DNA of 18,860 bases from the IMG/VR virus record IMGVR_UViG_2526164632_000035, one strand, 5' to 3'. Both the position numbers and the translations under genes were made by a program. This stretch comes from a virus (Duplodnaviria; Heunggongvirae; Uroviricota; Caudoviricetes). The stretch's first letter is position 1; the number at the start of each line of letters is the position of its first letter. A model generated the notes under the pieces. It searched no databases. It was not told the origin of the DNA and saw only the letters and a list, made by a program, of their open reading frames with translations. This document shows positions 8,633 to 18,860 of the stretch, piece after piece.

Positions 8633-9077
8633 ATCTCACACCTCCGGAAATCCCCGCTGAAGCCATCATTAATGCGACATCATCCTCGCTGACATCCGCC
8701 ACATCCGCAGACGATAAAATCTCACGCCCTCCGTCCCCACCAAACCGGACGCCTCCGGCAAGTCCTGCCGCTTTCTGCATCAGCATTTTTTCCTCATCCG
8801 GCATCTCCGTCTGCGCTTCCTCACGCCGGGGGGCAAGCAGACTGAAATCAGAGGGATGCATATCCGGATCGCAAAAAAACAGGCTGAGTACGGCGTACGT
8901 CAGCCCGGAAAAATGCATATCCAGTTGGGTATCGAGAAAATAATGCGTACGGTAAAAATGTCGCCAGTCGGCATATTCGGTGGATGTCATCCCGGCAAGC
9001 ATGGCGCGCCAGTCAGGCCTCCCCATCTCACGCGCCAGTCTGAGGGCAAAATTCAGCTCGCCGTCGAAGACTTTCCC
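8613..9077 (-). CDS. T: T-frame segment of the tail assembly chaperone GT, reached by programmed -1 frameshift from G
   Basis: The -1 frame is open from the slippery site to the stop at 8613..8615 and encodes …GKVFDGELNFALRLAREMGRPDWRAMLAGMTSTEYADW…, matching lambda gpT as recalled. Confidence 0.8.
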   Translation of the reverse strand, partial: GKVFDGELNFALRLAREMGRPDWRAMLAGMTSTEYADWRHFYRTHYFLDTQLDMHFSGLTYAVLSLFFCDPDMHPSDFSLLAPRREEAQTEMPDEEKMLMQKAAGLAGGVRFGGDGGREILSSADVADVSEDDVALMMASAGISGGVRYVPAGW

Positions 9078-9484
9078 GCAGAAAAATCATCATCAGTCAG
9101 CGCGTTATTTTTCGCCACTTCGGTGCTGTCAGTATCCGCATGAACAGCCCCGCTCATCCCGGACAGACGCAACACCACATCTTCCGCCCGGGCAATGGCA
9201 TCCGCAGGCCAGGTGGTGAGCACCTCCTGTTCGATCTGCATCACAGCCTCATTCATTGACGGTGATGCCGTTTTCTGCGGATGGTTATGCCACAGGGACA
9301 TCGCCACCAGAAACGCGCCGGTTCTGACGAGATCTTCCACGCTTACCTGCAGGTTGCCGCTGGATTCTGCCTGTTCTGCACGCCGTTTCAGGAGGGCAAG
9401 ATGCTCAATACGCTGCAGCGCAGACAATTCGGAAAGCGTGACGGACACACCGTTATATTCAAATTGTTCTGTTTTCAGAAACAT
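9053..9484 (-). CDS. G: Tail assembly chaperone (lambda gpG-like)
   Basis: Start chosen at the internal ATG (MFLKTEQFEYNGVSVTLSELSALQRIEHLAL…) with GGAGG 9 nt upstream. The track ORF's 24-aa N-terminal extension overlaps V and is rejected. Confidence 0.85.
   Translation of the reverse strand: MFLKTEQFEYNGVSVTLSELSALQRIEHLALLKRRAEQAESSGNLQVSVEDLVRTGAFLVAMSLWHNHPQKTASPSMNEAVMQIEQEVLTTWPADAIARAEDVVLRLSGMSGAVHADTDSTEVAKNNALTDDDFSAGKSSTAS
9071..9077 (-). promoter_or_regulatory. Programmed -1 ribosomal frameshift slippery heptamer G GGA AAG (G to GT)
   Basis: Minus-strand gcGGGAAAGtc lies 6 codons before the G stop. This is the same heptamer used at the lambda G-T frameshift site. Confidence 0.8.
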
Positions 9485-9497
9485 GTATGACCTCCGT

Positions 9498-10250
9498 TTA
9501 CCCTGCAGCGCCCGCTTCAGTAACGGTGACTTCAGCCACTGCGGCGAACTGACCATTTCCGCTCACCACAGGGATCTGCACCTTACCTGTCGCCACGCCG
9601 TTTACCGTAATTGTCATATCTTTCACACTAATGGTGGCTTTCGACGGATCGGCGGAAACCGCTCTGAACGTCTTGTCTGTTGCACTTTCCGGCTCAAAAG
9701 AAACCGTCAGGGTGGTTGTTTTCCCTTTTGCCACCGTACCGGATGTCGGCGTCACCTTAATCGCACTGACCGGCGTAATTTTGCTGCGTTCTTCCGCTAC
9801 AGAAGGTTTACCCACGTTAGTGACTTTCACCGTGCGGGTGATCACTTCTTTCGCCGTCACGGCCTTACCGATACTGCTGACCCAGCCACGAAACACATCC
9901 ACCGTGCCATTCGGGAAACGGATTTTATAGGCCCGGACATCGCCGCTTTCAAACCAGCCTATAAGCCCTTTCTGACCTTCTTCTCCCGGTTTCCAGGCCA
10001 GCGTAAAACTGGTATCTCCTGCAGACTTCTGCCCCTGCCCGGTCGCGGTCCAGTCCGCGTCTTCATCATCCAGGTAGTTATCATCGTAGGGTTCTGCCGT
10101 CATCTCGCCCGGCGTCAGATCCTTCACCTTAGCCAGTCGCAGCCAGTCATCGTCTGACAACGGGTTTGCATAGGCGTCACCCTGACCGTTATAAACCCAC
10201 AGGGTGGTACCGGCACCTTTTACCGGCTCAAGGGGATTTGGTGTTGACAT
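9498..10250 (-). CDS. V: Major tail tube protein (lambda gpV-like, with C-terminal Ig-like domain)
   Basis: 250 aa with similarity throughout ([79 protein letters not shown]). Confidence 0.9.
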
Positions 10251-10257
10251 ATCGTCC

Positions 10258-10653
10258 TCACATCTCGTATGTAATGGAATAAGTCAGATCCGCAGAACTC
10301 CATAACGCCATATCGTCATCACGACGATACTCATAGCCCTGCGTAACCATCGTGGTAATCAGGTCTGCCAGTGCCGGGATCGCAGTCATCGCCGGATAAA
10401 TCCGGCTTTCCATCCACGAATCCAGCTCCGAATCCGGTACCTGTGCTGGTAAAAACACCTCAATATGCAGTGTGGCCCGCCAGGTATCTGCATCCAGCTC
10501 TTCACCGGTATACTCTGCATCCGTCAGATAAACCGCGACCGCGGGAAAATCCTCTTCGTCAAAAACAACGGGGCGACCATCAAACAGCGTCGCCCCGTGT
10601 TCATGCAGCTCCAGTGCATCCAGCACTGCAGCACGGATATCAGTATGTTTCAT
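10258..10653 (-). CDS. U: Tail terminator protein (lambda gpU-like)
   Basis: 131 aa, [15 protein letters not shown]…[18 protein letters not shown]…[25 protein letters not shown]…YRRDDD…[13 protein letters not shown]. Start overlaps the Z stop. Confidence 0.9.
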
Positions 10654-11183
10654 CGTTTTATCGCAATCCTCAGTTGTTGTTTCAGCGCGTATGCCAGTTC
10701 TCCGGGCAGACGTTCACGCCGGATACGGTCAACATTCTCATCAAACGCCTGTTTCAGTGGGGCCGCCATCGGGATTTTCACCACATCAATGGGGTAACGG
10801 TTTTTCCCGACCACACGCTGCATGACATGCCAGCGACCATTTTTTAATCGCTGAATAAATGCCCGCTGATAACGATGCTGACCGGCTTTGAGTATGCTGT
10901 CCGGACGACGCCCCGGCATCCTGATCCCCAGCTTAATCACCGGGAGATCACCGCGGTTAACGATAATTCTGGCATTCGGATTTCTGACCGTGGCCCGTTT
11001 CAGTCTGGACCGTTCCTTAACCAGTTTCCGTCTCACCCTGGTTTCCCGGGCAACCTGTGATGAAGACTGATTAATCGCCGTTGTGGCCACGCGGTTAATG
11101 GTCATTGCAGAAGCCGCCGGAATGGCGTTTTTACGAACCCGGCTCAGATTATCAATCGCCTGCTCAAGCCCTTTTATCGCCAT
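10650..11183 (-). CDS. Z: Tail completion protein (lambda gpZ-like)
   Basis: 177 aa, MAIKGLEQA..NLSR…INRVA..AI.QS.SQVARET.VRRKLVKER.RLKRATV.NP.ARI.VNRGDLPVIKLG…AFIQ.LKNGRWHVMQRV.GKNRYPIDVVKIPMA.PL…RIRRERLP.EL.YAL. The central region appears shorter than I recall for lambda gpZ; not resolved. Confidence 0.8.
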   Translation of the reverse strand: MAIKGLEQAIDNLSRVRKNAIPAASAMTINRVATTAINQSSSQVARETRVRRKLVKERSRLKRATVRNPNARIIVNRGDLPVIKLGIRMPGRRPDSILKAGQHRYQRAFIQRLKNGRWHVMQRVVGKNRYPIDVVKIPMAAPLKQAFDENVDRIRRERLPGELAYALKQQLRIAIKR

Positions 11184-11198
11184 AATTTCACCCTGCGT

Positions 11199-11552
11199 TT
11201 ATCGTCGCCGGTTAACGGCGGGTGGTTGCCCACGGTTGAGCCAGAGATAACAGCTGCCCCCGTCATCCGGAGAAACACGATCCACCCAGAATATCTCACC
11301 ATTAATGGTCAGCGTGTCACCACGCCGCACAGCACGAACCGTATCCGTCCGCACAAATAATGACGGGCTGCTTCCTTCAATACGGACCCCGCTACCGGCA
11401 AATCCCAGCGACTCCGGATCGTCAAAAACCCCCTGAACTTCTCCGCCACACTGTGCCCCCGAGGTGAACTGTGCACAGAGCCCCATCACTTCAACAATCG
11501 TACTGTCCACCCCGGCAAGGGCAGCATCAAAGGCATTCTGAAAATCACGCAT
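11199..11552 (-). CDS. FII: Head-tail joining protein (lambda gpFII-like)
   Basis: Start chosen at the ATG giving MRDFQNAFDAALAGVDSTI…, which aligns with the lambda FII N-terminus. C-terminus FWVDRVSPDDGGSCYLWLNRGQPPAVNRRR. Start overlaps the FI stop (ATGCGTGA). Confidence 0.8.
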   Translation of the reverse strand: MRDFQNAFDAALAGVDSTIVEVMGLCAQFTSGAQCGGEVQGVFDDPESLGFAGSGVRIEGSSPSLFVRTDTVRAVRRGDTLTINGEIFWVDRVSPDDGGSCYLWLNRGQPPAVNRRR

Positions 11553-11919
11553 AAACAGCCATTCCGCCATCAACGTGTGTTTTTGCATCTGAGGACATAA
11601 TCAGAATCACCCGACCAACATCCGCAATCTCAACGGATTCCCCTGTTTCACCATCAATGCTACAGAGATGGAGGCAGGTCAGAACTCTGATGCGCGTTAA
11701 CGCACCGGATGTATCCTCACGAACATCATGAGCCGCGGTTTCCCGCTCCCGGATCACCGTATCCCCAACCTGAACATCCTCGCCGGATGACTGTATTTCC
11801 TCTTCCCATTCCGCCACCCGCTGCGCTATCTCTGCGGCACTCCCGGATATATCCGGCTCACGCCCCAGAATCAGGGCCAGTTCATCAAGCCGTTTCAGAT
11901 TTTGCTCTTTCGTTGCCAT
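11545..11919 (-). CDS. FI: DNA packaging protein (lambda gpFI-like)
   Basis: Start chosen at the internal ATG (MATKEQNLKRLDELALILGRE…AEIAQRVAEWEEEI…). Acidic mid-region. Position between E and FII. Confidence 0.7.
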   Translation of the reverse strand: MATKEQNLKRLDELALILGREPDISGSAAEIAQRVAEWEEEIQSSGEDVQVGDTVIRERETAAHDVREDTSGALTRIRVLTCLHLCSIDGETGESVEIADVGRVILIMSSDAKTHVDGGMAVYA

Positions 11920-11970
11920 ATCAGCCCCCTGTGAAAAAAGACACGGGGGCATTTCGCCCCCGCTCACGGA

Positions 11971-12998
11971 TTATTTCACCTGTACCACCACAAACTCATC
12001 CGGGTCCGGCAACACCATCAGCGGCGCAGACTGCGTCATGGTAAATTCACGGGCGGGATCCCCCACCGTCAGCCAGTGTTTCGGATAACGGGAAGAGGCC
12101 ACCACACCTTCGGACAACGCCTGCGCATCCTGAATGGCACCGTAACAACGGATCCCATCTGCAGCAGTATTCCCCAGAACCAGCATGCCCTCCGGCAGAT
12201 AACGTTTTTCGATACCGTCTTCTGCTATATAAGACGTTTTCGCCACCACAATGGCCAGATCGCCGTAATACCCCTTGAAGGACACCACTGCGCCCAGATC
12301 TTTCACTGCCGTTTCGAGTTGAGAATTTGAACCGCGACGGGTATCCAGTTTTTCGCGGAACAGCTTAAAACCATTCAGAAGACGCCAGACGGTACCGTCC
12401 ATAATGGCAATATTCACAAGACCGCTGGCCTGGTCGCAGTAGAGGTCAAGATCATGTGTAGGATCGAACGTGTCACGATCCTGTTTTGACCACTCCTTAC
12501 CACTACCCTGAGTGATGTTATTCTTCGTCGACCTGCCAAAATCGACCTCAATTTTCTCGAACTGGTCTCCTTCCATCGTGTATTTGCCATACAGCACGGC
12601 ATTCACCGCCTGCATTTCTTCCACCTGGACAATGGCGTGCTCTTCCTGTTTGAGGTTATCAGTGATGATACGCAGACGACGGTAGGCCGGGTCGTTCAGC
12701 TGAGCCGGATCTTCACCGGGAAGACGCTCAACCGCCTGCTGGTAATTAAATTCGTGTTTCGGCTTGACGTAGCCCGGACGTAACACGCGGGTTTCACCAC
12801 CACGATGACGCAGCACTTTTCCTTCAACAACCGGGGAGACATAGGCCGCCACCGGCGTTTTCCAGTAATTTTGTCCAGCATCACCTCTTCGGTATGGAAA
12901 TTCACCGTACGGCGGAAAAACAGCTCCAGAAACAGCGCACGAAATTTCACTTTTTGTTCGGTATAACCGAGTAACTGGCGGGTCGTAAACAATCCCAT
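11971..12998 (-). pseudogene. E: Major capsid protein (lambda gpE-like), split by a frameshift at the homopolymer 12858..12861
   Basis: N-terminal frame from ATG 12998 (MGLFTTRQLLGYTEQKVKFRALFLELFFRRTVNFHTEEVMLDKITG) and C-terminal frame (…VAAYVSPVVEGKVLRHRGGE…PGYVKPKHE…VQVEEMQAV…KLDTRRGSNSQLETAVKDLG…GDPAREFTMTQSAPLMVLPDPDEFVVVQVK) both match consecutive parts of lambda gpE but sit in different frames. The junction is at minus-strand ggAAAAcg. Confidence 0.8.
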
Positions 12999-13055
12999 AA
13001 ATCAGTTCCTTTCATTCAGAAATCAGTCAGGCCACCGCGGTGGCCTGATAACGTG

Positions 13056-13403
13056 TTACGGCAGCGCCGCGTGACTCAGGGCACTGCCGGCAAAGGCATT
13101 TGCCTTTTTGTGTTCATCCACACTTTCAGGCCAGCGGATTGCCTCCGTCGCAAAGGTCCCCGACTTGTAATAGGTCAGTACCGTCTCTGTGCCTTCAAGC
13201 GGCAGTACCAGTATGCCAACTGCACTACCGGCTTTCTGTCCGTCCCAGACCACCAGTTTCCCGCTGGCTTCATCCAGCATCAGGGGCGTCAGTGCCGGTG
13301 TTGCCGAGGAAATCCCGCTGCTGCCTGTGGCGGTATGAGCCGGATCATTACCGGCAAAAATACGTACTTCCGCACGCTGTTCAGTGATGGTTTTCGTTAC
13401 CAT
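13056..13403 (-). CDS. D: Head decoration protein (lambda gpD-like)
   Basis: Start at ATG 13403 (MVTKTITEQ…) with AGGAGG 8 nt upstream. NDPAHTATG…TPLMLD…KLV.WDG…AVGIL…TYYKSGTF…WPE…AFAG. Confidence 0.85.
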   Translation of the reverse strand: MVTKTITEQRAEVRIFAGNDPAHTATGSSGISSATPALTPLMLDEASGKLVVWDGQKAGSAVGILVLPLEGTETVLTYYKSGTFATEAIRWPESVDEHKKANAFAGSALSHAALP

Positions 13404-13438
13404 ATTGTAAAACCTCCTGTTGATGATCAGCACTGACT

Positions 13439-14945
13439 TCATGGCATGGCCATGAGCATTTTCACGTCCGCATCACCGTCTGCTGACGTCTGTGGCACGC
13501 CACCCTGTACCGCTGCCGGTGAATGGTTCGCCATGATGCGTTCAAACAGGGCGGTTGTGGATGCAGAGACCGGTTCTGCCTTACCTGATCCCGCAGCCAG
13601 CACAGCCCGGGCGCTCTCCACAGTCATTCCCGGGCAGGCAGCCAGCTGTTCAGCCTGCGCCTCAGCCCCTTTTGCCTCATCCAGTGCCATGATCTGATCA
13701 CGGAGTGAGGGTCCGGCATCCGCCTGCGGTGAAGCAGCCAGGATCGGGCGGGCTTTTTCCACCGTCATCTCCGGCATCGCCGCCAGCGTTGCCGCCAGTT
13801 GTTCACGACCGTTCGCTTCTTCACACGCCATAATGCGATCGGCTTCACTCTGCGTGGATGCCACCGGCTGCTGCGGTGCCGCCGCGGCCAGAATCGCCCG
13901 GGCCTGTTCAACGCTCATGCCCTGTTGTCCTGCCAGCATCGTGGCAAGCTGTTCACGTCCTTTCGCTTCCTGGCATGTCAGGATCCCCATCACTCGCTGG
14001 TTCTCCTGCGCGGCGGCTTCCGTTGCAGTTAATTGCGGCATAGTGCCTCCTCTGACATTACTGTTCAGCGCCGTGGCCATCACACTGATGGCATCCGACG
14101 CATTGACTAATTCATCCGCCAGCCCGGCATCAATGCCGGACTGACCTTCAAAAACGGCGGCCTCTGTTCCCGTGACGGCATCAACAGACAGACCGGTAAA
14201 CATGGCCACTTTTTCGGCAAACATCCGGCGCGCCGCATCAATGCGCTGCTGCATGTCCTGGCGAACCTCTGCCGGTAAGGCTTCAAACTGATTGCCATCC
14301 ACCTTGTGCGCCCCTGAGTAAATCAGCGTGATATCCACACCGGCCTGCGCCAGATGACCGGCATAGCTGACATGGCTCATCATCACGCCAATGGAGCCGA
14401 TACGGGATGTCTGGGTAACCAGCCGTCGGGAGCAGGCCGATGCCAGCAGCATGGCTGCAGAACAGGCCGTGTCATTGCACAGTGCCCAGACCGGCTTCTG
14501 CTGACGGAGGCGGTAAATCATGTCAGCGCAGTCAAACGCGCCGGCGGCCTGCCCGCCCGGACTGTCAATGTCCAGCAGTACGCCCCGCACCTGGCTATCC
14601 GCCATTGCCTGCTGAAGACAGGCGACAATGCCGTCATAGCCAGTCATTCCGGAAAATGGCCGCATCCCCCCCAGCCGGTGCACCAGCGTGCCGGTCACCG
14701 GCAGTACCGCAATACCGTTCACCACCCGGTAAACACGGGCCGGTCGTTTACCTCCGGCCATGTACTCGTCCGTTTCAGCCAGCATTCCGGGAGCATCAAG
14801 CTGTACCTGCTGCTTGTGGTACCGAAAGACTTGCTGCCCCCATCTCGCGCCCGAGCGCGCAAAAGAAAACCCGCGCATAGGCGGGCTCCAGAAGCAGCGG
14901 TTCATTGAATGCTGCGGCAATAATGTGTGAAAGATTACGTCTCAC
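13439..14945 (-). pseudogene. C: Head maturation protease and scaffold (lambda gpC/Nu3-like), with a frameshift near 14796..14825
   Basis: The true N-terminus is in another frame: GTG at 14943..14945 with AGGAGA 9 nt upstream gives VRRNLSHIIAAAFNEPLLLEPAYARVFFCALGREMGAASLSVPQAAGTA*, matching the lambda gpC N-terminus, with a stop at 14796..14798. The rest (…GKRPARVYRVVNGIAVLPVTGTLV…GMTGYDGI…LLDIDSPGG…KPVWALCND…LVTQTSRIGSIGVMM…) is in the track ORF frame 13439..14920. Confidence 0.75.
13537..13996 (-). repeat. Three tandem, diverged copies of an approximately 150-bp unit encoding an approximately 50-aa motif in the Nu3/scaffold part of C
   Basis: Protein copies: RVMGILTCQEAKGREQLATMLAGQQGMSVEQARAILAAA…; RIMACEEANGREQLAATLAAMPEMTVEKARPILAAS…; QIMALDEAKGAEAQAEQLAACPGMTVESARAVLAAG…; followed by a partial RIMANH…. 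Lambda as recalled has one copy. Confidence 0.7.
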
Positions 14946-16528
14946 GTGGTGTTGTCTCCTCTTCCGGCCTGCGACTCTCCGCTATCTGCTGCTGATACGC
15001 CTGCGCTATCCACACCGGACGTGAGAGTCCGGCTTTTTCCCGCTCTGCAGATTCCCTGACCTGCTGGCGGAAAATGTCCTGATAATCCTCGCCCATCAGC
15101 GCCAGCTCTTTCTCATACGTGCTCAGTCCGGCCTCAATGCGCATCACTGATTCCTGAACCTCCTTGAGCCCGTCAATGGCCATTCTTCCGGCTCCAATCC
15201 ACTCAGCCCGTGACCAGGCTGATCGCGCCTGATAAAAATCAAAACGTGCCCGTGGCGGACGAATAATCCCCCGAAGAAGTGCCTCTTCCAGCCAGCAGGA
15301 AAACATCTGCGTGGCCAGCCGGGACGCAATAAATTTTCGCCGCCCCATAAAATAGCGCCACGACTCATTGGCGGATGCGCGGGCACTTGAATAACTGACC
15401 TTCGAGTAATCACGGGACAACTGTTCGTAGGAAACGCCAAGACCGGCGGCGATATACCGCAGCAGCGCCTGTTCAAGCGCCGAAAATCCATTGTCTGAAT
15501 CCTGCGCGGTCTGAAGTTTCAGATCATCACCGGGGAAAAGGTGCGGAATTTTGACACCGCCCAGCGTCACGCTATTCGTGTCATACCAGGTGGAGAACTT
15601 ATCCAGAATATTAATAAGCGGATTATCCTTCTGCCCCTGCGGCGCACCGGCGATATATTCAAAGGCCTTTTCGGTATCAAGGTCACTTTCAATCGTCGCT
15701 GCATACATCGCCTTCACTATGGCCGACTGAAGCTGTGTTGCCTGCAGGGAATCGAGCATCTTCAGCCGTTCCATTACGCTGTAAAACTGATTGGCCCCAC
15801 GGGTCTGCCCGTCCTCCACCGGCTCGAAAATATGCAGCATGGCCGGACGCCCGGTGGGAAGTTCACGCGGGATCCGTTCCCATCGTCCACTCCCAGAGAA
15901 CGGAAAATCATCCTCACAGATATGGTACGCAACGGCACGACCATATCGATCGACCTCCACACCGGCCCGCAGAAAACGGTTCCCCATACCGTGTCCTGGC
16001 GTGTCCACCCGTTTCGGACTCACGGCTTTAAAACGCGTACGAAACAGTTGCGTGCTCTCCGTATCCCAGACCGGCTGCACAAAGATTTTCGCCGTTAAAC
16101 GCATGAACGCCCACACCTTCACGAATAAATTCCGTAAACGTGCGTTTCTCTTCCACGTCGATCTCGCCAGACATCCCTTCGGCGTATTCCGACCAGGCCG
16201 CCTCCACCTCATCGACAAAACTTTTTGCCGCAGTCTCCCGCATCCCCAGCCAGCGCCAGTTCGGACGGTAGCTGATCAGAAACATATGCCCGACAATATG
16301 ATCCTTATGCAGGGCCACCGCATTGGCCGCTATCCCGTTATTGCGCACCAGATCATCTGCCCGGGCATTCCCCAGACGCAACGCAGGCAGCAGGGCTGCA
16401 TCGGCACTCTGCGCCGGTGGCAACCACTCCGCCATTTGCCCGCCAAATCCTGCACCGCCACCGTTGTAGCTGAGGCTCTCCCGAAGCGGAACGCCGTTCA
16501 CATCAATCAGGACAGGCGTTCGTTTCAT
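14935..16528 (-). pseudogene. B: Portal protein (lambda gpB-like), split by a frameshift at the homopolymer 16086..16089
   Basis: N-terminal frame from ATG 16528 (MKRTPVLIDVNGVPL…GGGAGFGGQ…NARADDLVRNNGIAANAVALHKDHIVG…HAFNGEN) stops at 16028. C-terminal frame (…IFVQPVWDTESTQLFRTRFKAVSPKR…FEPVEDGQTRGAN.FYSVME…QSAIVKAMYAATIES…GLGVSYEQLSR…) runs to the stop at 14935. Both match lambda gpB. The junction is at minus-strand gAAAAtc. Confidence 0.8.
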
Positions 16529-16731
16529 AACCTCACTCCCAGCGGACGACGGCGACGTCGGGTTGTCCCCAGTACCGACTCCGCATCATTGATCGCCCGG
16601 TTAAGCTCATCCAGAGAAGCCGCCGTATATTCAATTCTGCGACCATCTTTCTGGACAGACACCACCCGTTTACCGGTTAATAAATCAAGGCGCGCCTGAC
16701 GCAGCGCCTGCAGTTCAGCGACTGTAACCAT
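16525..16731 (-). CDS. W: Head-tail connector protein (lambda gpW-like)
   Basis: 68 aa, same length as lambda gpW (…LTGKRVVSVQKDGRRIEYTAASLDEL…RRRR). Stop overlaps the B start (ATGA). Start overlaps the A 3' end. Confidence 0.85.
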   Translation of the reverse strand: MVTVAELQALRQARLDLLTGKRVVSVQKDGRRIEYTAASLDELNRAINDAESVLGTTRRRRRPLGVRL

Positions 16732-18643
16732 TCACTCCTCCGGACAGCTTCGCTGCCAGTTCTTTCAGGGTTGGCCGGGTCGTCTCTTCTTCCCGGGATT
16801 TTGCCAGTACAGCCAGATCAAGCTGCCAGCGTTGCACGGACACACGTAATGCCGCGTAGGCATACACCAGGCAGTCCAGCGCTTCGTTACGCCGCTTTTT
16901 GTTATCCCACAGCAGACGCATCTTTCCTTTTTCCCACTTCTCCACCAGCTCTTCCGCCACCAGTTGCTGCGCCTCTGTCTGCGAAAAAATCTCCGGATCA
17001 TCAGGAAAACGGATGGCATACGACGTGGCTTCATCCGCAGGCGTGGGATCGGCTTTCATACGGGCATAGAGAATTTCTTTTGCGGTGTCCGTCCCCACTT
17101 CGCACAGATACACGCCCCGCTGATTGCGGGTTTTTGGCATGGTGATCACCGGCTTGCCATAAACAGATGCACCTTTTACCGGCAGCACCCGGAAAACACC
17201 GTGTTTTTTTGACCTCTGATAGACAATTTCGCCATCGATCCCCCCGGTGTCCCAGCAGACACGGGAAATGGTCATTTCGGTTCCGTCTGCATGGCGGTAT
17301 TTTTTGTTGATCGCCACATCCACACGTAACAGCGTCTCTTCCTCATCGGGACGCCCCATAATGATGATTTTATCCACCAGAAAGGCTTCCTCTCCCGGAG
17401 CCCATCCCCAGACATACATCTCAAAACGGTTTCGCTGCGAGTCAATGCCCGCCGTCAGATAAACCACCCGGGAAGGCACCGCAGCCGTGTAACGCACAAC
17501 CTTATCCATCAGCACCTGGTGATCGAGTTTTTCGCCCACGGCCTCTTCCCAGGTCTCGCCCAGCGTGGTGTTCACAAAGGTTTTCAGGCCGTTGGGATCT
17601 TTCAGTGCATCCAGCCAGTCATAGACAATCTGTACCCAGGTGGTGAACGGACTGTACGCCGTCCAGATATGAAATGTGATGGAGCGCGGCGGCGGAATTT
17701 CATTATCCGCGGCGCTGAAAAACGTCAGACCGTCGCGGGTCCACATGCCCGTGTTTTCGCAGATCCACCGCCCGTTGCTCTGGTCAAGCTCAGACTGATG
17801 GATCACGCAGCCATGATGTTCACAGAGGTAGAAAACGCTTTCGGGGCTGTCCTTCTCCCATTTAAGGCCAAAAGGCGTGGACTCATCGCCAAATTTCAGA
17901 TACTGCGCCTCCCCACAGTGCGGGCAGGACACATAAAAACGCATGAAATGCGCCGACTCGTTGGCCGCTTTTTCGATCTGGCAGGAGCCTTTTATTTTAG
18001 GCGTCGAGCCGCGAATGGATTTTGGCCATACCGAGCCCTCAATACGCTTATCCCCCAGCAGGGTTGGCGAGCCCTCTTTTTCGACATCCGGCTCGAACGA
18101 GGAAAGTTCGTCATAGCAGACCACGTCCACGGATTTTTCACGGTAGTTTTTTGCTGCCGCACCACCCAGGCACCAGAAGCCCACCCCCGATGAAAAGCGT
18201 TTCAGCGTGAGAGTATTGTCACGATGTTTACGACCCAGCCACGGGGAAAGATCTTTCAGGCATGGCACGTCCCGAATCGTCGCCTCCACGTGAGACTTCA
18301 TAAAATCTTCAGCGGCAGAATCCGTGGGCTGAAAAAGCAGACTGTTTCGGGATTTATGCTCAATAAAATACCCGGCGACTCCCAGCAACATCTTTGTATA
18401 GCCAACACGGGCAGATTTAATCAGATTAACAGTGCGGATCTGATCATTCCCCATACTGTTCATGATGGCGATCTGGAACGGCAGCGTTTTCCATTCGCCG
18501 TCACCGTATGAGGATTCTTTCGGCAGATAATAATACTGGTCAGCCCATTCAACTGCCGTCATCGGTACAACCCTGACCAGAGGCTGCAGCGCAACCGAAA
18601 CGGCGGCCACCATATTATTCAGTTGTTGCTCTGATATATTCAT
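16715..18643 (-). CDS. A: Terminase large subunit (lambda gpA-like)
   Basis: Start chosen at the internal ATG 18641..18643 (MNISEQQLNN…), aligning with lambda MNIS…; about 643 codons. Similarity throughout (TAVEWAD.YYYLPKES, KSARVGY.KMLLGV, KRFSSGVGFWCLGGAAAKNYREKSVDV, GDKRIEGSVWPKSIRGSTPK, HFMRFYVSCPHCGE.QYLKFGD, FHIWTAYSPFTTWVQIV, LTAGIDSQ, CWDTGGID, KGASVYGKPV, WDNKKRRNEALDC). Confidence 0.92.
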   Translation of the reverse strand: MNISEQQLNNMVAAVSVALQPLVRVVPMTAVEWADQYYYLPKESSYGDGEWKTLPFQIAIMNSMGNDQIRTVNLIKSARVGYTKMLLGVAGYFIEHKSRNSLLFQPTDSAAEDFMKSHVEATIRDVPCLKDLSPWLGRKHRDNTLTLKRFSSGVGFWCLGGAAAKNYREKSVDVVCYDELSSFEPDVEKEGSPTLLGDKRIEGSVWPKSIRGSTPKIKGSCQIEKAANESAHFMRFYVSCPHCGEAQYLKFGDESTPFGLKWEKDSPESVFYLCEHHGCVIHQSELDQSNGRWICENTGMWTRDGLTFFSAADNEIPPPRSITFHIWTAYSPFTTWVQIVYDWLDALKDPNGLKTFVNTTLGETWEEAVGEKLDHQVLMDKVVRYTAAVPSRVVYLTAGIDSQRNRFEMYVWGWAPGEEAFLVDKIIIMGRPDEEETLLRVDVAINKKYRHADGTEMTISRVCWDTGGIDGEIVYQRSKKHGVFRVLPVKGASVYGKPVITMPKTRNQRGVYLCEVGTDTAKEILYARMKADPTPADEATSYAIRFPDDPEIFSQTEAQQLVAEELVEKWEKGKMRLLWDNKKRRNEALDCLVYAYAALRVSVQRWQLDLAVLAKSREEETTRPTLKELAAKLSGGVNGYSR

Positions 18644-18860
18644 CGAGTAAATCCGGTAATTTATCCCCTGCCCGCGCACACTGATTTGCCCCCTTCGCAA
18701 TAAGGGTTTTCAGATGGTCAAGATGGCGCGGTGTTAAATCAGGAAACTGTCGCTGCATGGATAAAGGGATGGAATCAAGCGTACTGGATAACGCCATTGC
18801 CAGCTTACTGAGGGCAAAAATACAGAACCCGGTGTCAATAAGTTTTCCTTTGACTACCTC
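18615..18860 (-). CDS. nu1: Terminase small subunit (lambda Nu1-like), 3' part only; the gene continues beyond the right edge
   Basis: The minus-strand frame is open from the window edge (…EVVKGKLIDTGFCIFALSKLAMALSSTLDSIPLSMQRQFPDLTPRHLDHLKTLIAKGANQCARAGDKLPDLLDEYIRATTE*) and matches the lambda Nu1 C-terminal third. Its 3' end overlaps the A start by 29 nt. Confidence 0.8.
   Translation of the reverse strand, partial: EVVKGKLIDTGFCIFALSKLAMALSSTLDSIPLSMQRQFPDLTPRHLDHLKTLIAKGANQCARAGDKLPDLLDEYIRATTE

Follow-up and report, generated by a model that had tools for sequence, protein, structure and literature searches.

We analyzed an 18,860-nt stretch of Escherichia coli DNA (IMG/VR record IMGVR_UViG_2526164632_000035; this whole stretch is called the window below) that carries a lambda-like prophage. 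Three large head genes of this prophage, the portal gene B, the protease/scaffold gene C and the major capsid gene E, are each broken by a frameshift. Judged by comparison of sequences, the three frameshifts are very probably consensus errors of a draft assembly, arising where near-identical prophage copies were merged and on top of a sequencing platform that undercalls long homopolymers. Taken as a biological finding, the frameshifted head genes are not a real feature, and in the real prophage of the source strain DEC12C the B, C and E genes are most likely intact, as found in the finished genome of strain 12A. The prophage is truly defective for other reasons: gene J is lost, gene I is cut short, and both nleB2 and nleH are disrupted.

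Results

The window represents the last 18,860 nt of contig AIHC01000061.1 (75,063 nt) from the E. coli DEC12C draft (GCA_000250255.2, 2012), and position 18860 is the contig end. DEC12C reportedly forms part of the DEC draft-genome collection, which is credited to Hazen and colleagues in 2012 (J Bacteriol 194:3026). The same prophage is present in the complete genome of E. coli O111:H2 strain 12A (NZ_CP077479.1), as indicated by a shared left junction of the insertion sequence (IS) element IS679 and a shared stop at codon 53 of nleB2. In the 12A prophage, the portal (530 aa), S49 peptidase (501 aa) and capsid (342 aa) proteins are encoded intact, and the genes are also intact in the same prophage of FDAARGOS_1059. 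Window positions 1-12856 differ from 12A by four substitutions and no small indels, with three substitutions found in 1-3938 and a single one, at position 9915, in 3938-12856. The flanking chromosome shows no substitutions over 8.7 kb. Overall, DEC12C and 12A are separated by four substitutions in ca. 21 kb of comparable unique DNA.

Using the intact sister-prophage proteins of 12A as tblastn queries against the window, we found B, C and E to be frame-split in the deposited sequence. In case of the portal, residues 1-147 are encoded at 16528-16088 and residues 139-530 at 16122-14938, with the frame changing near codon 147. The C protein is divided into residues 1-44 (14945-14814) and 7-501 (14911-13442), with the change after codon 44, and the capsid protein into residues 1-47 (12998-12858) and 47-342 (12861-11974), with the change at codon 47. 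Base-level alignment reduced each break to one 1-nt indel relative to every relative examined. The E lesion is a 1-nt deletion at 12857 (T5 to T4 on the plus strand), the C lesion is one extra base at the non-homopolymer site 14813/14814, and the B lesion is a 1-nt insertion at 16086 (TTT to TTTT, i.e. T3 to T4, on the plus strand and A3 to A4 on the coding strand). Beyond these single lesions, none of the three genes shows further decay by tblastn; apart from its lesion the E protein is 100% identical, and B and C resemble two head-module copies of 12A, A and B, described below. Pfam matches on the fragments, all above the gathering cut-off, were obtained for both portal pieces (PF05136), for C (PF01343) and for both E pieces (PF03864), and these domains together with the lambda order between W and FI assign B, C and E to the lambda families. 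The 100-aa N-terminal capsid open reading frame (ORF) has no called gene on record.

Private changes are also present outside the three breaks. A substitution at 12864, 7 nt from the E deletion, has no effect on the aligned protein. At 13408, a fourth private indel, a 1-nt deletion (plus strand A5 to A4), reduces the distance between the AGGAGG motif and the start codon of gene D from 10 to 9 nt and keeps the frame. Further, a -1/+1 indel pair is found in Nu1 at 18848/18855, 6-13 nt before the contig stops; it has no counterpart in relatives and is of a kind typical for contig ends of low quality. A preliminary description of the window, made from the sequence alone, had reported that B, C and E are broken, that two of the three lesion sites are homopolymers and that A, W, D, FI, FII and Z through K are single ORFs. 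All of this is borne out: each head gene is split into two frames by one 1-nt indel, the sites at 12857 and 16086 are homopolymeric, and a single ORF with 97-100% identity to the annotated protein was found for each of A, W, D, FI, FII, Z, U, V, G, T, H, M, L and K. Its statement that the lesions are confined to B, C and E does not strictly hold in view of the D-spacer deletion, the Nu1 pair and a truncated gene I.

The small indels were found to be private to a single assembly. None of the six (four in the head region and the Nu1 pair) is present in six related haplotypes, i.e. copies A and B of 12A, FDAARGOS_1059, O145 RM12581 and two further contigs (one being JBFOBC010000002.1). Queries of 61-64 nt spanning each indel were compared with complete E. 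coli genomes. Exact matches numbered zero among the 1,630 complete genomes carrying the E site (12857), the 1,331 carrying the C site (14813/14814), the 1,833 carrying the B site (16086) and the 292 carrying the D-spacer site (13408), and the closest complete-genome match at each site was always one or two differences away. Exact-pattern scans of IMG/VR returned no match for the three frameshift alleles and at least 120 matches for the intact portal allele. At the protein level, the 166-aa portal, 293-aa capsid and 49-aa C fragments each occur only on contig AIHC01000061.1 among ca. 15 billion proteins. No lesion is reproduced in an independent close sequence: 12A and FDAARGOS_1059 are intact and the alleles have no exact match in the complete genomes or IMG/VR.

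In the 3.2 kb between 12857 and 16086, four indels stand against one substitution (12864) that is absent from all six related haplotypes. This is not credible as a mutational spectrum, and the divergence between the strains is not commensurate with several independent inactivating events. The indel density of the head region is ca. 13 times that of unique DNA, and the probability of observing at least four indels in 3.2 kb at the unique-DNA indel rate is 2.8e-4. Uniform homopolymer noise as the sole cause was rejected based on this excess and on the location of the indels at short runs.

The head region of the window is a mosaic of paralogous alleles. The 12A genome holds four copies of the head-module region, and a three-way alignment with copies A and B showed the window to switch repeatedly between their alleles (Table 1). 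In CP077479, copies A, B and a third one, C, are located at 2.157-2.174, 1.906-1.932 and 3.143-3.160 Mb. The terminase region (16400-18860) is 99.9% identical to copy B at 1,918,064-1,920,524 of 12A, ca. 240 kb from copy A, and terminase gene A shows 0 nucleotide differences from its copy-B equivalent. The tail genes are those of copy A, and window positions 11800-12580, in the A-specific 3' half of E or in FI, diverge from copy B by about 12%. With copy-A tail genes and a copy-B terminase on one contig, the contig is therefore chimeric or recombinant at their join. If the join is real, gene conversion or a deletion of 237 kb would have to lie behind it, and an actual deletion of this size between copies A and B is an unlikely source. 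No complete genome exceeds 99.5% identity to window positions 11800-16800. Every private change falls within 12600-17000 or at the contig end. This is a repeat present in several copies, in which alleles of the paralogs are mixed and the contig breaks off, at 18860. At 14813/14814 the window reads CT, with T in copy A and C in copy B; both alleles stand next to each other, which is the outcome expected of a mis-registered mixed-read consensus. The variants at 15340 and 15343 (a small patch of copy-B alleles) and at 15895 are common to FDAARGOS_1059 and for this reason probably represent genuine strain variation.

The same pattern was observed in the draft of a sibling strain where the finished genes are intact. 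Contig AIHA01000079.1 of the DEC12A draft covers a third prophage, corresponding to copy C of 12A. In unique upstream DNA it matches finished 12A at 7,092 of 7,092 nt, and based on this perfect match, the name and the serotype, strain 12A is taken to be DEC12A. Within the W-portal-C-D-E interval of the draft contig, W, portal and C are broken by five private 1-nt indels. The interval also holds 12 substitutions, each equal to the allele of copy A and/or copy B, and the contig ends inside E. Finished 12A annotates these copy-C head genes as intact. In a further draft, DEC11C (contig AIGX01000083.1), portal, C and L are broken and the D ORF is lengthened (125 aa).

Indel errors are also found in unique and housekeeping DNA of the same contig. 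We compared 10 kb of contig AIHC01000061.1 beyond the window start (L006, in whose numbering the positions below are given) with 12A and found only two 1-nt homopolymer undercalls and one IS insertion. One change, T8 to T7 in nleF (12679), disrupts the draft version of this effector gene and probably reflects an undercalled homopolymer. The other, A7 to A6 in hprR (20325), converts a response regulator of 223 aa into a 253-aa product; 12A has A7, and the A6 allele occurs in 0 of 5,113 complete genomes. The identical 253-aa HprR is encoded on 29 contigs, several of them with EHV/EHW accessions near the EHX series of this project, which we take to be DEC drafts, and a similar HprR variant is present in Shigella drafts. 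This recurrence fits a site-specific miscall of the platform. Of the five homopolymer runs of at least 7 nt that the compared unique DNA contains, two are called wrongly. Frameshifts at homopolymers in housekeeping genes of this assembly, which had been named beforehand as a sign of sequencing error, are thus present in kind (hprR, nleF), though numbering only two instances in the 10 kb compared.

Several defects of the prophage are genuine. The independently finished 12A genome likewise shows the nleB2 stop, the IS679 insertion together with the missing J, and the frameshift in nleH, so these defects are reproducible and real. The right terminus of IS679 (...CGCTTAC) directly adjoins gene I, and 353 nt that 12A keeps beside the same IS element (the 3' part of I and a remnant of J) are gone from DEC12C. 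This loss looks like a genuine IS-adjacent deletion, leaving I truncated too. Both the nonsense codon in the nleB-like gene and the IS-mediated loss of J had been noted in the preliminary description and are confirmed by 12A. Its broader picture of a decaying, effector-carrying prophage stands as far as nleB2, IS679 with J, and nleH are concerned, all of which are seen in 12A, but the head-gene lesions are very probably not part of that decay.

Discussion

We propose that the three frameshifts, the indel upstream of D and the contig-end pair are all consensus errors of the 2012 DEC12C draft and not mutations. In the lineage of the strain, several lambda-like prophages share their W-B-C-D-E modules at 97-100% identity. 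Reads from these copies may have been merged in that interval, a mechanism that we infer, and merging would produce a contig with alternating copy-A and copy-B alleles, with spurious 1-nt indels and with an end inside the repeat. In addition, the same assembly undercalls long homopolymers in unique DNA. Indel-prone sequencing had originally been offered as the second choice, and it is this explanation that is supported by the privacy of the indels, the allele mosaic, the errors in unique DNA and the sibling draft. The reading preferred at that time, in which the head lesions belong to real decay of the prophage, is unsupported.

A number of points weigh against attributing the lesions to the assembly. 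The errors are deduced from comparison and not seen in reads. The DEC genomes are presumably largely 454-based. The reference, 12A, is a sister strain and not DEC12C itself, and the two are separated by the 353-nt IS-adjacent deletion and by an IS3-family insertion. Real recombination may account for some of the allele mosaic; the variants at 15340, 15343 and 15895 are common to FDAARGOS_1059. Further, the head indels are located at runs of 3-5 nt or at a non-homopolymer site while the platform errors in unique DNA are located at runs of 7-8 nt. This mismatch in run length sets the window apart from ordinary early-draft homopolymer noise and means that a second error mechanism, paralog mixing, has to be invoked. 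Finally, J is truly lost and the head genes are free to decay, which makes real lesions plausible a priori.

This last point leads to the strongest competing explanation, a real and recent pseudogenization in which the head genes were freed from selection after IS679 took J and DEC12C then gained three inactivating indels and one intergenic indel. We consider it improbable. The prophage is indeed defective, with IS679, the nleB2 stop and the nleH frameshift found in finished 12A, the lesions are present in the deposited sequence, and broken copies are not rare in databases (ca. 8 of 120 IMG/VR head-module loci are listed with at least one split head gene). However, four substitutions in ca. 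21 kb of unique DNA compare poorly with four indels and one private substitution in 3.2 kb, and each gene carries exactly one lesion with no further decay. The alleles occur in no other genome or viral contig searched, the lesions coincide with a mosaic of paralog alleles at a contig end, and the DEC12A draft repeats this pattern in genes that are intact in the finished genome. That DEC12C independently knocked out portal, protease/scaffold and capsid very shortly after its split from 12A, as real lesions would require, is likewise improbable. Were it true, it would point to selection acting against the making of capsids by a prophage without tails, or to local hypermutation tied to gene conversion between prophages.

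A mutator lineage is considerably less probable again. Here, DEC12C would be deficient in mismatch repair and the hprR, nleF and head indels would all be genuine, resulting from real homopolymer slippage. Five of the six indels away from the contig end are indeed gains or losses of one base in A/T runs, and the substitutions between DEC12C and 12A are mostly transitions. A mutator would nevertheless be expected to leave many more transitions in 21 kb and would not cluster its indels at short runs within a repeat that exists in several copies. The insertion at 14813/14814 lies outside a homopolymer. The occurrence of the 253-aa HprR on 29 contigs yet in none of the 5,113 complete genomes argues for a platform-specific miscall. 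Programmed ribosomal frameshifting or other recoding, brought to mind by the neighboring G/T genes, which lambda expresses by a programmed -1 frameshift, has a negligible probability and was rejected: B, C and E are single ORFs without indels in every relative, and neither the two-frame layout nor a recoding site is conserved.

Three known systems come closest to what is seen here. The window contains the lambda-like head module (Nu1-A-W-B-C/Nu3-D-E-FI-FII) of E. coli lambdoid prophages, with the same gene order, gene lengths and Pfam families (PF05136, PF01343, PF02924, PF03864), and shows 97-100% protein identity to annotated intact modules in ca. 1,850 complete E. coli genomes. It differs from these only by four 1-nt indels and one substitution private to the draft contig. 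Private indels of one base, undercalled runs of 7-8 nt, mixed alleles of prophage copies and a contig ending in a repeat all resemble consensus errors of early drafts. The same pattern is found in the DEC12A and DEC11C drafts and, in a more extreme and genome-wide form, in contig UARW01000010.1. In this National Collection of Type Cultures (NCTC) assembly (GCA_900448305.1), a related prophage has almost all of its genes in fragments, with the portal in pieces of 460 and 69 aa, C in four pieces, and E, Z and U each split. The assembly appears to suffer from indel errors throughout the genome and represents another trap for pseudogene counts. The element further resembles the "exchangeable effector locus" lambdoid prophages of enteropathogenic and enterohemorrhagic E. 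coli, as nleB2, nleC, nleH and nleF lie beside the tail region. Like these it is crippled, in this case by IS insertion and loss of J, and several effector pseudogenes are found in both the DEC12C and 12A assemblies. As far as finished 12A shows, real decay here spares the head genes.

Frameshifted head genes of multi-copy lambdoid prophages in early drafts such as the DEC genomes should not be taken as evidence of decay or non-inducibility. Pseudogene counts and calls of intact versus defective prophages drawn from such drafts will be inflated exactly where prophage copies are near-identical. The prophage studied here remains defective even with intact head genes because IS679 removed J and part of I; the reproducible defects (J lost, I truncated by IS679, nleB2 and nleH pseudogenes) suffice to call it so.

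Gene content of the window

The phage genes are all located on the minus strand in lambda order (Table 1). A 128-aa ORF starting at 13442 is an upstream extension of D.

Table 1. Features of the window and blocks of copy-A and copy-B alleles, in window coordinates.
Feature	Position	Strand	State and remarks
nleB2 pseudogene	1-981	-	stop at codon 53; same stop in finished 12A
IS679 (IS66 family: tnpA, tnpB, tnpC)	1235-3938	+	replaces J and 3' end of I; right terminus exactly 3938
I	about 3939-4283	-	truncated at IS679 terminus; ca. 115 of 193 codons left
FI, FII, Z, U, V, G, T, H, M, L, K	below 11971	-	intact
E, major capsid	11971-12998	-	split; 342 codons when repaired; PF03864
D, head decoration	13056-13403	-	intact, 115 codons; 100% identical to 12A protein; PF02924
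D spacer deletion site	13404-13412	-	between AGGAGG motif and ATG of D
C, S49 peptidase and scaffold	13439-14945	-	split; 501 codons when repaired; PF01343
B, portal, lambda gpB family	14935-16528	-	split; 530 codons when repaired; PF05136
W (gpW)	16525-16731	-	intact, 68 codons (tblastn)
A, terminase large subunit	16715-18643	-	intact, 642 codons
Nu1, 3' part	18615-18860	-	cut by contig/window end; carries -1/+1 indel pair
A/B near-identical interval	12600-17000		copies A and B of 12A: 0-13 differing sites per 400 nt (three-way alignment)
Mosaic block	up to 13450		copy-A alleles (three-way alignment)
Mosaic block	13591-14462		copy-B alleles (three-way alignment)
Mosaic block	14642-15775		copy-A alleles (three-way alignment)
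Mosaic block	16454 onward		copy-B alleles (three-way alignment)

Some minor observations were made in the window and in related sequences. Two of the substitutions relative to 12A, at 411 and 423, lie 12 nt apart in the nleB2 pseudogene, and one of them changes D to N. The IS insertion seen in the unique DNA beyond the window start is an IS3-family element (L006 18294-19522, with HTH_Tnp_1 and rve ORFs) located between hiuH and hprR in DEC12C; the site is empty in 12A. In a 2013 draft scaffold (KE702270.1, 11698-13114), C is split into 43 and 396 aa and the locus is ca. 89 nt shorter than in relatives, possibly reflecting a real internal deletion. In contig JBFOBC010000002.1 (14850-17438), an IS66-family element is inserted between E and FI of a related prophage with an identical terminase protein.

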